A DNA stretch of 39,615 nucleotides, from sequence record PP541512.1; one strand, given 5' to 3'. Positions 16,224 to 16,612 of the stretch are shown here, in pieces (position 1 is the first letter of the stretch; the number at the start of each line of letters is the position of its first letter). Made by a program: the position numbers and the translations under genes. Below the pieces are notes generated by a model that had not been told where the DNA came from, did no database searches, and was given only the letters and a program-made list of their open reading frames with translations. The DNA is from Escherichia phage PSK1.

Positions 16224-16266
16224 GACCTACGGTCCTTGACCTACAGTAGCTGCCACCTACGGTCAC
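16224..16266. repeat. Short direct-repeat array (GACCTACGGTC / GACCTACAGTA / CACCTACGGTC) on the left flank of the putative terminal repeat
   Basis: Three roughly 10-bp repeats within 43 bp, read directly; analogous to the short repeat arrays bordering the T7 terminal repeat. Confidence 0.6.
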
Positions 16267-16300
16267 TCGATGAGTTTTGGACCAAAAGTTTGAGACCACA

Positions 16301-16500
16301 TCTCACAGTTCAAGAACCTCAAGTCTCCCCATAGGCCCTCTTTCAGTCCAGACAAAGGCCCTACCCCAGTCTATCATAAGGCTGGACCGATGGTCAAGAC
16401 GTTAGGTCAACGATAGGTCTAGGCTATGGCTGGAGGTCAGGACGATAGGTATGGACTATGGGTCTGCCTCTGAGTCCCTATCTGTATAGTGATATAGTAT
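16301..16500. repeat. Putative genome terminus and direct terminal repeat, collapsed to one copy in the assembly
   Basis: Begins TCTCACAGT...TCTCCCCATAGG, resembling the T7 left end as remembered (TCTCACAGTGTACGG...CCCCCATAGGGGG). Non-coding and bracketed by repeat arrays. Boundaries are approximate. Confidence 0.45.
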
Positions 16501-16510
16501 AACATTACGT

Positions 16511-16612
16511 CCTACACCTACAGTCTAACTAACCTACAGTCATTGACTCCTGCTGTACCTACAGTCACCGACCATCGGTAAAGCCATTACCTACAGTCAA
16601 AGACCTACAGTC
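16511..16612. repeat. Direct-repeat array, five copies of ACCTACAGTC, on the right flank of the putative terminal repeat
   Basis: CACCTACAGTC, AACCTACAGTC, TACCTACAGTC (x2), GACCTACAGTC, all read directly. Confidence 0.7.

Follow-up and report, generated by a model that had tools for sequence, protein, structure and literature searches.

The question raised by this locus was where the DNA of phage PSK1 begins and ends. An initial annotation of the window (the whole stretch of 39,615 nt that was analyzed) had proposed that the sequence is a circularly permuted genome, and that its physical ends lie near 16.3 kb. Comparison with related phages leads us to conclude that the window is very likely the complete genome of a Kayfunavirus (K1F-like; T7 family, Studiervirinae), the virion DNA of which would be linear with a short direct terminal repeat bordered by positions 16301 and 16479. 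The coordinates of the features are collected in Table 1.

Table 1 Features of the PSK1 window that bear on the layout of the genome and its predicted ends
Feature	Position	Strand	Evidence or remarks
Assembly overlap, copy 1	1..127	.	Identical to 39489-39615; artefact, no biological repeat
Gene 12, remainder	1..2255	+	Frame from 39386 continued; PHROG 457
Gene 18, small terminase subunit	13033..13296	+	Pfam PF11123 DNA_Packaging_2, E = 1.5e-11
Gene 19, T7-type large terminase subunit	13844..15607	+	65% identity to T7 gp19 over 575 aa; PF22530 Terminase-T7_RNaseH-like; PHROG 38
phiOR equivalent, last promoter before the junction	15702..15724	+	PWM score 36.8; identical to annotated EcoDS1 phiOR
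Gene 19.5-like ORF, 52 aa, last gene of the linear genome	15904..16062	+	PHROG 2193, E = 6e-25; aligns to EcoDS1 gp19.5
Left array, counterpart of T7 SRR, three imperfect ACCTACAGTC copies	16225..16264	+	All 16 related junctions conserve it
Invariant block before the repeat, CGATGAGTTTTGGACCAAAAGTTTGAGACCACA	16268..16300	+	Same sequence in K1F, EcoDS1, Milel and almost all of the 16 IMG/VR junctions, the last 11 bases having belonged to the IMG/VR search pattern
Predicted direct terminal repeat, 179 bp, one collapsed copy	16301..16479	+	Starts and ends of relatives' records; annotated or PhageTerm repeats; T7 alignment
Putative concatemer-junction signal CTATCTGTA	16478..16486	+	Identical to EcoDS1 "concatemeric junction" feature
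Right array, counterpart of T7 SRL, five exact ACCTACAGTC copies	16516..16612	+	Number of copies and unit variants not constant among relatives
Host RNA polymerase early promoter, A1-like	16725..16761	+	Aligns to annotated EcoDS1 host promoter and T7 A1
Host RNA polymerase early promoter, A3-like (TTGACA-18-TAGTAT)	16866..16906	+	Consensus scan 10/12; aligns to EcoDS1 host promoter and T7 A3 start
Gene 0.3 (Ocr DNA mimic), a marker of the early left end	17417..17923	+	Pfam PF08684 ocr, E = 5.7e-29; PHROG 2568
Gene 12, N-terminal part (tail tubular protein B)	39386..39615	+	ATG with RBS; frame continues into 128-2255; PHROG 457
Assembly overlap, copy 2	39489..39615	.	To be trimmed, leaving a 39,488-bp circle

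Layout of the record and gene content

The two ends of the window are identical (1-127 = 39489-39615), as the initial annotation had stated; the match is 100% over exactly 127 nt and stops at base 128. Removal of the duplicate leaves a unique circle of 39,488 bp. The same annotation had gp12 reading across the window boundary, and this proved right: from an ATG at 39386, preceded by AGGAGG, the frame crosses the end of the window and continues to a stop at 2255, giving a protein of 785 aa. In the PHROG 457 (tail protein) profile, the first 117 aa cover positions 1-123, and the part encoded by 129-2255 covers positions 84-793 (E = 2.8e-244). The 127-bp overlap thus lies within gene 12, in agreement with the proposal that the sequence was assembled as a circle or concatemer and opened arbitrarily.

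The largest k-mer used by SPAdes is 127. The overlap at the window ends is exact, has this length and is placed arbitrarily with respect to the genes. Overlaps of 127 bp at the ends of SPAdes contigs have been described as an artefact to be trimmed (PMC5923482), and by its length and its position inside an essential tail gene the identity is almost certainly this documented artefact, a circular-contig overlap of the SPAdes type. An exact direct repeat at both ends of a sequence is also the usual signature by which direct terminal repeats are called in contigs; by that rule the 127 bp would be the real terminal repeat, and the window would already show the physical ends. We consider this next to impossible. 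A terminal repeat at this place would leave gene 12 split between the genome ends, whereas gene 12 is intact and internal in both K1F and T7. Moreover, none of the relatives ends at this place, and for many of them the termini align to 16301 and 16479.

The layout of the record can be accounted for by a collapsed repeat. The two copies of a terminal repeat would have been merged by the assembler because they are identical, and a genome with identical ends would therefore have been closed as a circle. Arbitrary opening of that circle inside gene 12 would have split the gene between the window ends and left the k-mer overlap at the ends of the contig.

By DNA identity and by colinearity with K1F and other members, the genus of PSK1 is Kayfunavirus. 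The region from 15600 to 17100 matches 387 phage records, the best being Kayfunavirus LI10P1 at 98.5%. Identity to Kayfunavirus records is 92-99.5% for the junction DNA and 93-97% for the genome halves outside it, with values of 94-97% against LI10P1, ZCEC02 and LNA5. In addition to the genes in Table 1, the genome encodes a T7-type RNA polymerase and an Rz-like spanin. The 1.0-kb non-coding stretch that had been reported after the gp19.5-like ORF is present; it covers 1,016 nt (16063-17078), in which the only ORFs are short mechanical ones, and is followed by the first early ORF. The junction lies in a T7-like order, between the right-end genes (18 and 19, phiOR, 19.5) and the left-end host promoters and gene 0.3.

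Several features of the gene content were observed in addition. The first early ORF (17079-17333, + strand, 84 aa, PHROG 10124, without a Pfam match) precedes ocr; because ocr is the first annotated gene in T7 and K1F, and the first within the 1.3 kb of EcoDS1 that was examined, this ORF is an extra leading early gene. A further ORF of 75 aa (39149-39376, + strand) with a DUF3850/ASCH domain (PF12961, E = 3e-19) lies between genes 11 and 12, whereas in K1F no ORF separates these genes, the last base of gene 11 being the first of gene 12. The gene 17 tailspike (10018-12720, + strand, 900 aa) has three parts: an N-terminal adaptor of the T7 tail-fibre type, a TSP1/Gp66-type N domain with a pectate-lyase-like region, and a C-terminal S74 chaperone domain. 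Because this tailspike is shorter than the product of the K1F tail protein gene (32666-35860, about 1,064 aa), and its segment from 10270 to 12241 gave no alignment to K1F, the receptor of PSK1 is probably other than the K1 capsule. The sequence GCTGCTGGTG, which contains seven of the eight bases of Chi, was found seven times in the genome (e.g., 6961-6998 and 36602-36639); the copies probably reflect Ala-Ala-Gly-Val codons.

Predicted borders of the terminal repeat

The initial annotation had likened the sequence near 16.3 kb to the left end of T7 and had read the interval as the single, collapsed copy of a direct terminal repeat. TCTCACAGT is indeed the start of the T7 reference, and the left border, A/TCTCAYAGT (the slash marks the border), is common to the window and to the T7 and T3 references. 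The 9-mer TCTCAYAGT starts the T7, T3 and K1F references and occurs only twice on the + strand of the PSK1 genome. Linear records that start at the base aligned to 16301 are those of K1F (two independent sequences), EcoDS1, Penshu1, YZ1, LS2, LS3 and ECG4, as well as PR_Kaz2018, NS1, HC13, 216Ecol046PP and Milel; the terminal repeat of EPr2 likewise begins at this base. An exact-pattern scan of IMG/VR across the left border matched 16 contigs. From these alignments T16301 (TCTCACAGT...) is almost certainly the left physical end, as predicted by homology.

The right border was examined in the same records. Nine independent records place it at 16479: Milel, SH4, L025, L027, OX461104, OX460967, EcoDS1, Penshu1 and EPr2. 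Among them, OX461104 and OX460967 are in reverse orientation and start at the base aligned to 16479, and SH4, together with two other linear genomes from IMG/VR, ends there. The repeat of Milel, an exact 202 bp at both ends, spans 16301-16479 apart from a 23-nt insertion. The annotated terminal repeat of EcoDS1 (1-178) maps to 16301-16479, and PhageTerm predicted short direct terminal repeats of 179 bp for Penshu1 and EPr2. The end of the T7 repeat (position 160) also aligns to 16479, and the right border, GTCCCT/ATCTGT (16474-16485), is common to the window, T7, T3 and EcoDS1. The pair of border motifs recurs downstream of terL in contigs with TerL identities down to 66%. The predicted right physical end is thus, again by homology, almost certainly 16479 (...GAGTCCCT, within 1 nt). 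The earlier placement of the ends near 16.3 kb and the collapsed repeat are both upheld by the agreement among the ends of relatives' records, the annotated or PhageTerm-predicted repeats, and the T7 and T3 borders.

Some records differ from this call in detail. The K1F record has an exact repeat of 178 bp, whereas the length is given as 179 bp where PMC4925675 cites the K1F paper; the records of CR44b and SH3 continue on the right for 1 and 5 nt, respectively, beyond the base aligned to 16479; and GA2A annotates a repeat of only 165 bp. The ends of the K1F-like phages SH3-SH5 were determined by run-off sequencing, with repeats of 183-190 bp (PMC4925675), and two primers from that study, SH3-F and SH4/5-F, match the window exactly (16358-16377 and 15968-15987, respectively). 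Among relatives the repeat length ranges from 178 to 202 bp through indels within the repeat, the right half of which holds internal CGATAGGT...GACTATGG repeats; gain and loss of these internal repeats accounts for the range. It could accordingly be argued that the layout is right but that the borders in PSK1 differ from those called by homology, the right one, for instance, being shifted by a few nucleotides. With nine records agreeing on one base, and with the T7 and T3 repeats stopping at the same ...CCCT/ATCTGT position, we judge such a difference unlikely.

A second alternative is that PSK1 packages by a headful mechanism, so that its DNA would be truly circularly permuted and have no fixed ends. 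The assembly closes into a circle, and many relatives have been deposited in permuted form: the repeat is interior in about 34 of the best 60 matching records, that is, in more than half of the best-matching public Kayfunavirus records, and many IMG/VR contigs extend 10 kb past terL. However, the large terminase belongs to the T7 type: it carries the T7-specific nuclease domain and has the identity to T7 gp19 given in Table 1. The termini of relatives are fixed, both by run-off sequencing (PMC4925675) and by PhageTerm, and conservation of the two border sequences reaches to T7 and T3. Headful packaging is therefore extremely improbable.

With fixed ends at a short direct repeat as the preferred reading, the genome can be restored. 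The suggestion to re-orient it to about 16301 turned out to be correct to the base: the circle of 39,488 bp, re-opened at 16301 and with the 179-bp repeat appended, gives a predicted packaged genome of 39,667 bp. This genome is colinear end to end with K1F (1-39702; 93.3% identity over 87% of the length, no match being out of order or on the other strand), and it is colinear with T7 too. In T7, replication and packaging require both copies of the repeat and the junction signals. The PSK1 record as deposited carries a 127-bp duplicate and a tail gene split across its ends, and it lacks a terminal repeat; trimming, re-opening and restoring the repeat as above corrects it. The corrected genome serves annotation, comparison among K1F-like phages, quality control of therapeutic phages, and rebooting or engineering. 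A collapsed terminal repeat of the T7 type is itself ordinary and already known biology for this group of phages.

In the course of these comparisons, irregularities were seen in three public records (MT350292.1, PV615262.1 and OM256482.1). The EPr2 record annotates its 179-bp repeat twice near the left end (1-179 and 501-679). In the other two, the host labels of "Enterococcus phage EFA-1" and "Acinetobacter phage vB_Aba_01KA" look wrong, because both are 92-95% identical to the coliphage-type genome of PSK1.

Signals and arrays at the junction

The "concatemeric junction" annotated in EcoDS1 (177-184) maps to 16478-16485, where the window reads the identical CTATCTGT. Directly after the repeat, at 16480, is ATCTGT, six of the seven bases of the class II signal ATCTGTT, at which the phage RNA polymerase pauses or terminates in the T7 concatemer junction. 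CCCTATCTGT is unique in the genome, and the transcribed strand has no more than three sites with ATCTGT followed by A or T. In PSK1 and in all K1F-like phages, A takes the seventh position (ATCTGTA). All seven bases of the class II signal are reported to be strictly required by the T7 polymerase; because PSK1 has ATCTGTA, we can only infer that its polymerase may pause at this site.

Eleven promoters for the phage polymerase were found, all on the + strand, with the consensus CTAAACTATCACTATAGGGA and PWM scores of 33-40. A phiOL equivalent was not detected: in the region homologous to T7 phiOL (16663-16692, + strand) the best PWM score was 0.8, and the sequence is not conserved. This region holds a degenerate promoter-like remnant, TAGTCACTATGGGG, and PSK1 seems to lack a phiOL promoter. 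A candidate leftward phage promoter, TATAGTGATATAG (16486-16500), resembled the reverse complement of the promoter core; its PWM score was 1.9, compared with 33-40 for the real promoters, and it is absent from K1F and EcoDS1, so the resemblance was attributed to chance.

RNA structures were also recorded. A scan of the whole window with Rfam gave no family at threshold. Hairpins resembling T7-type RNase III sites (AGACTNNAGGTCAT...GTGGCCTTYATGRTTA) were seen at 13285-13360, 18050-18125, 22435-22510 and 29225-29300; their fold z-scores are -2.3 to -5.1, and no Rfam family covers them. The hairpins at 22435-22510 and 29225-29300 have a promoter-like CTATAGG or CTAGG stretch upstream. When the junction was compared with the "hairpin end" model of T7, the only candidates near it were the near-palindrome TTTTGGACCAAAA (16275-16287), within the invariant block, and a 12-bp stem at 16096-16138. 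The stem is a perfect inverted repeat, CTAAGGTCAGTA / TACTGACCTTAG (+ strand), with a 19-nt loop; it lies just after gene 19.5, and no T-run follows it.

Processing of the junction is known from work on T7 and T3 (Dunn and Studier 1983; Chung, Nardone and Hinkle 1990; Lyakhov et al. 1997; Zhang and Studier 2004), and by analogy the following steps may be proposed for PSK1. Replication would produce head-to-tail concatemers in which neighbours share one copy of the repeat, the arrangement seen in the window. Late transcription from phiOR would run across gene 19.5 and the repeat and would pause at ATCTGT just past it. The gp18/gp19 terminase, together with a prohead, would then cut both borders of the repeat, and DNA synthesis would duplicate it; because of this proposed duplication, each packaged genome would carry the repeat at both ends. 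In such virion DNA the block at 16268-16300 would be the unique sequence directly to the left of the right-hand copy.

The repeat is flanked by arrays of a short unit. With at most one mismatch allowed, the unit ACCTACAGTC occurs at 26 sites of the window, where 2.9 would be expected; the junction interval accounts for eight of these sites. The left array has no exact copy, because each of its copies (16225, 16239 and 16255) carries one mismatch, reading ACCTACGGTC twice and ACCTACAGTA once. The copies of the right array are at 16516, 16532, 16557, 16589 and 16603. The initial annotation had two arrays bracketing about 230 bp; the arrays stand, whereas the gap between them is 251 bp (16265-16515) and the repeat itself is 179 bp, with TCTCACAGT starting 36 nt after the left array. 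By position the arrays correspond to SRR and SRL of T7. Among relatives the left array is well conserved, whereas the right one is variable, both in how many copies it has and in which units are mixed.

The junction as a whole is that of the genus. PSK1 shares with K1F and other members (EcoDS1, Penshu1, LI10P1 and SH3-SH5) the left-end 9-mer, the invariant block that precedes the repeat, about 55 bases at the start of the repeat itself, the junction signal, arrays of the ACCTACAGTC type, and a repeat of the same length class (178-179 bp). It differs from them in being a circularised assembly with one copy of the repeat, and by a few substitutions inside the repeat; in its right array, the number of copies and the choice of units are not those of K1F and EcoDS1, both of which mix in ACCATAAGTC units.

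The likeness to T7 extends to the left end, the right border, CCCCATAGG near the start of the repeat, and arrays on both sides, the T7 unit ACCTAAAG(T/A)C being one or two bases from ACCTACAGTC; phiOR and gene 19.5 lie on the left, and the host promoters A1 and A3 and gene 0.3 on the right. In contrast to PSK1, the T7 repeat is 160 bp and cannot be aligned in its interior; its pause signal has T as the seventh base; a phiOL-type promoter is present; the promoter consensus is different; and the array word is not dispersed through the genome. The left end of T3, TCTCATAGTTCAAGAACC..., is closer to the PSK1 repeat than that of T7, and its right border, GTCCCT/ATCTGTT, is identical up to the last base; however, the T3 repeat is longer (231 bp) and differs in internal sequence, and T3 has a phiOL promoter.

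A dispersed word related to the array unit

The array unit belongs to a word found throughout the genome, ACCTNNAGTC (reverse complement GACTNNAGGT). The circle contains 30 copies, compared with 2.6 expected under a third-order Markov model (maximum 8), and of the 65,536 possible 4-N2-4 words it is ACCTNNAGTC that scores highest, ahead of the promoter words. Neither orientation predominates. Examples of sites in either orientation are at 35, 7350, 8096, 13633, 14878, 23636, 24327, 28176, 31634, 34713, 34890, 36294 and 36683. K1F has 26 copies (2.5 expected), whereas T7, with four (1.9 expected), shows no enrichment. Among 50 terL-centred contigs, enrichment was seen only where TerL is at least 90% identical, and none was seen in contigs with TerL identities of 73% or less. 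A parallel dispersal of the T7 array word CCTAAAG was not found, with nine copies outside the T7 ends and about five expected.

Fifteen copies are intergenic, and several of these are the 5' arm of T7-type RNase III hairpins (z-scores -2.8 to -5.1), so part of the signal is ordinary. The other 15 lie inside genes and occur in all three frames. Shuffling of synonymous codons predicted 2.4 +/- 1.4 copies in genes, and none of 300 shuffles reached 15, which rules out codon or amino-acid bias as the cause. Pairing of hairpin arms was also rejected, the partners being hundreds of bases apart except at the RNase III-type sites. A symmetric protein-binding site was considered and rejected, since enrichment was absent or only weak for its palindromic forms, ACCTNNAGGT and GACTNNAGTC, as well as for a spacing of 1, 3 or 4.

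The fixed eight positions of the word are retained in relatives, which are not phylogenetically independent, at 0.69 in genes (0.47 for random windows) and 0.83 outside genes (0.57 for random windows). In distant lineages about half of the sites are at places where the window has none, some of them in non-homologous DNA; the sites turn over between lineages while their number is kept. The literature searched yielded nothing relevant on ACCTNNAGTC or its variants. We tentatively suggest, while thinking it rather doubtful, that the arrays may be the densest cluster of a genus-specific, orientation-independent 10-bp word that is kept by selection across Kayfunavirus.

The dispersed word is the only part of these results that might teach something new about Kayfunavirus. 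If it is indeed under selection, ACCTNNAGTC would point to an undescribed sequence-specific factor acting on DNA, for which the candidate roles are a site for packaging or for binding of the small terminase, a priming signal, or a nicking site.
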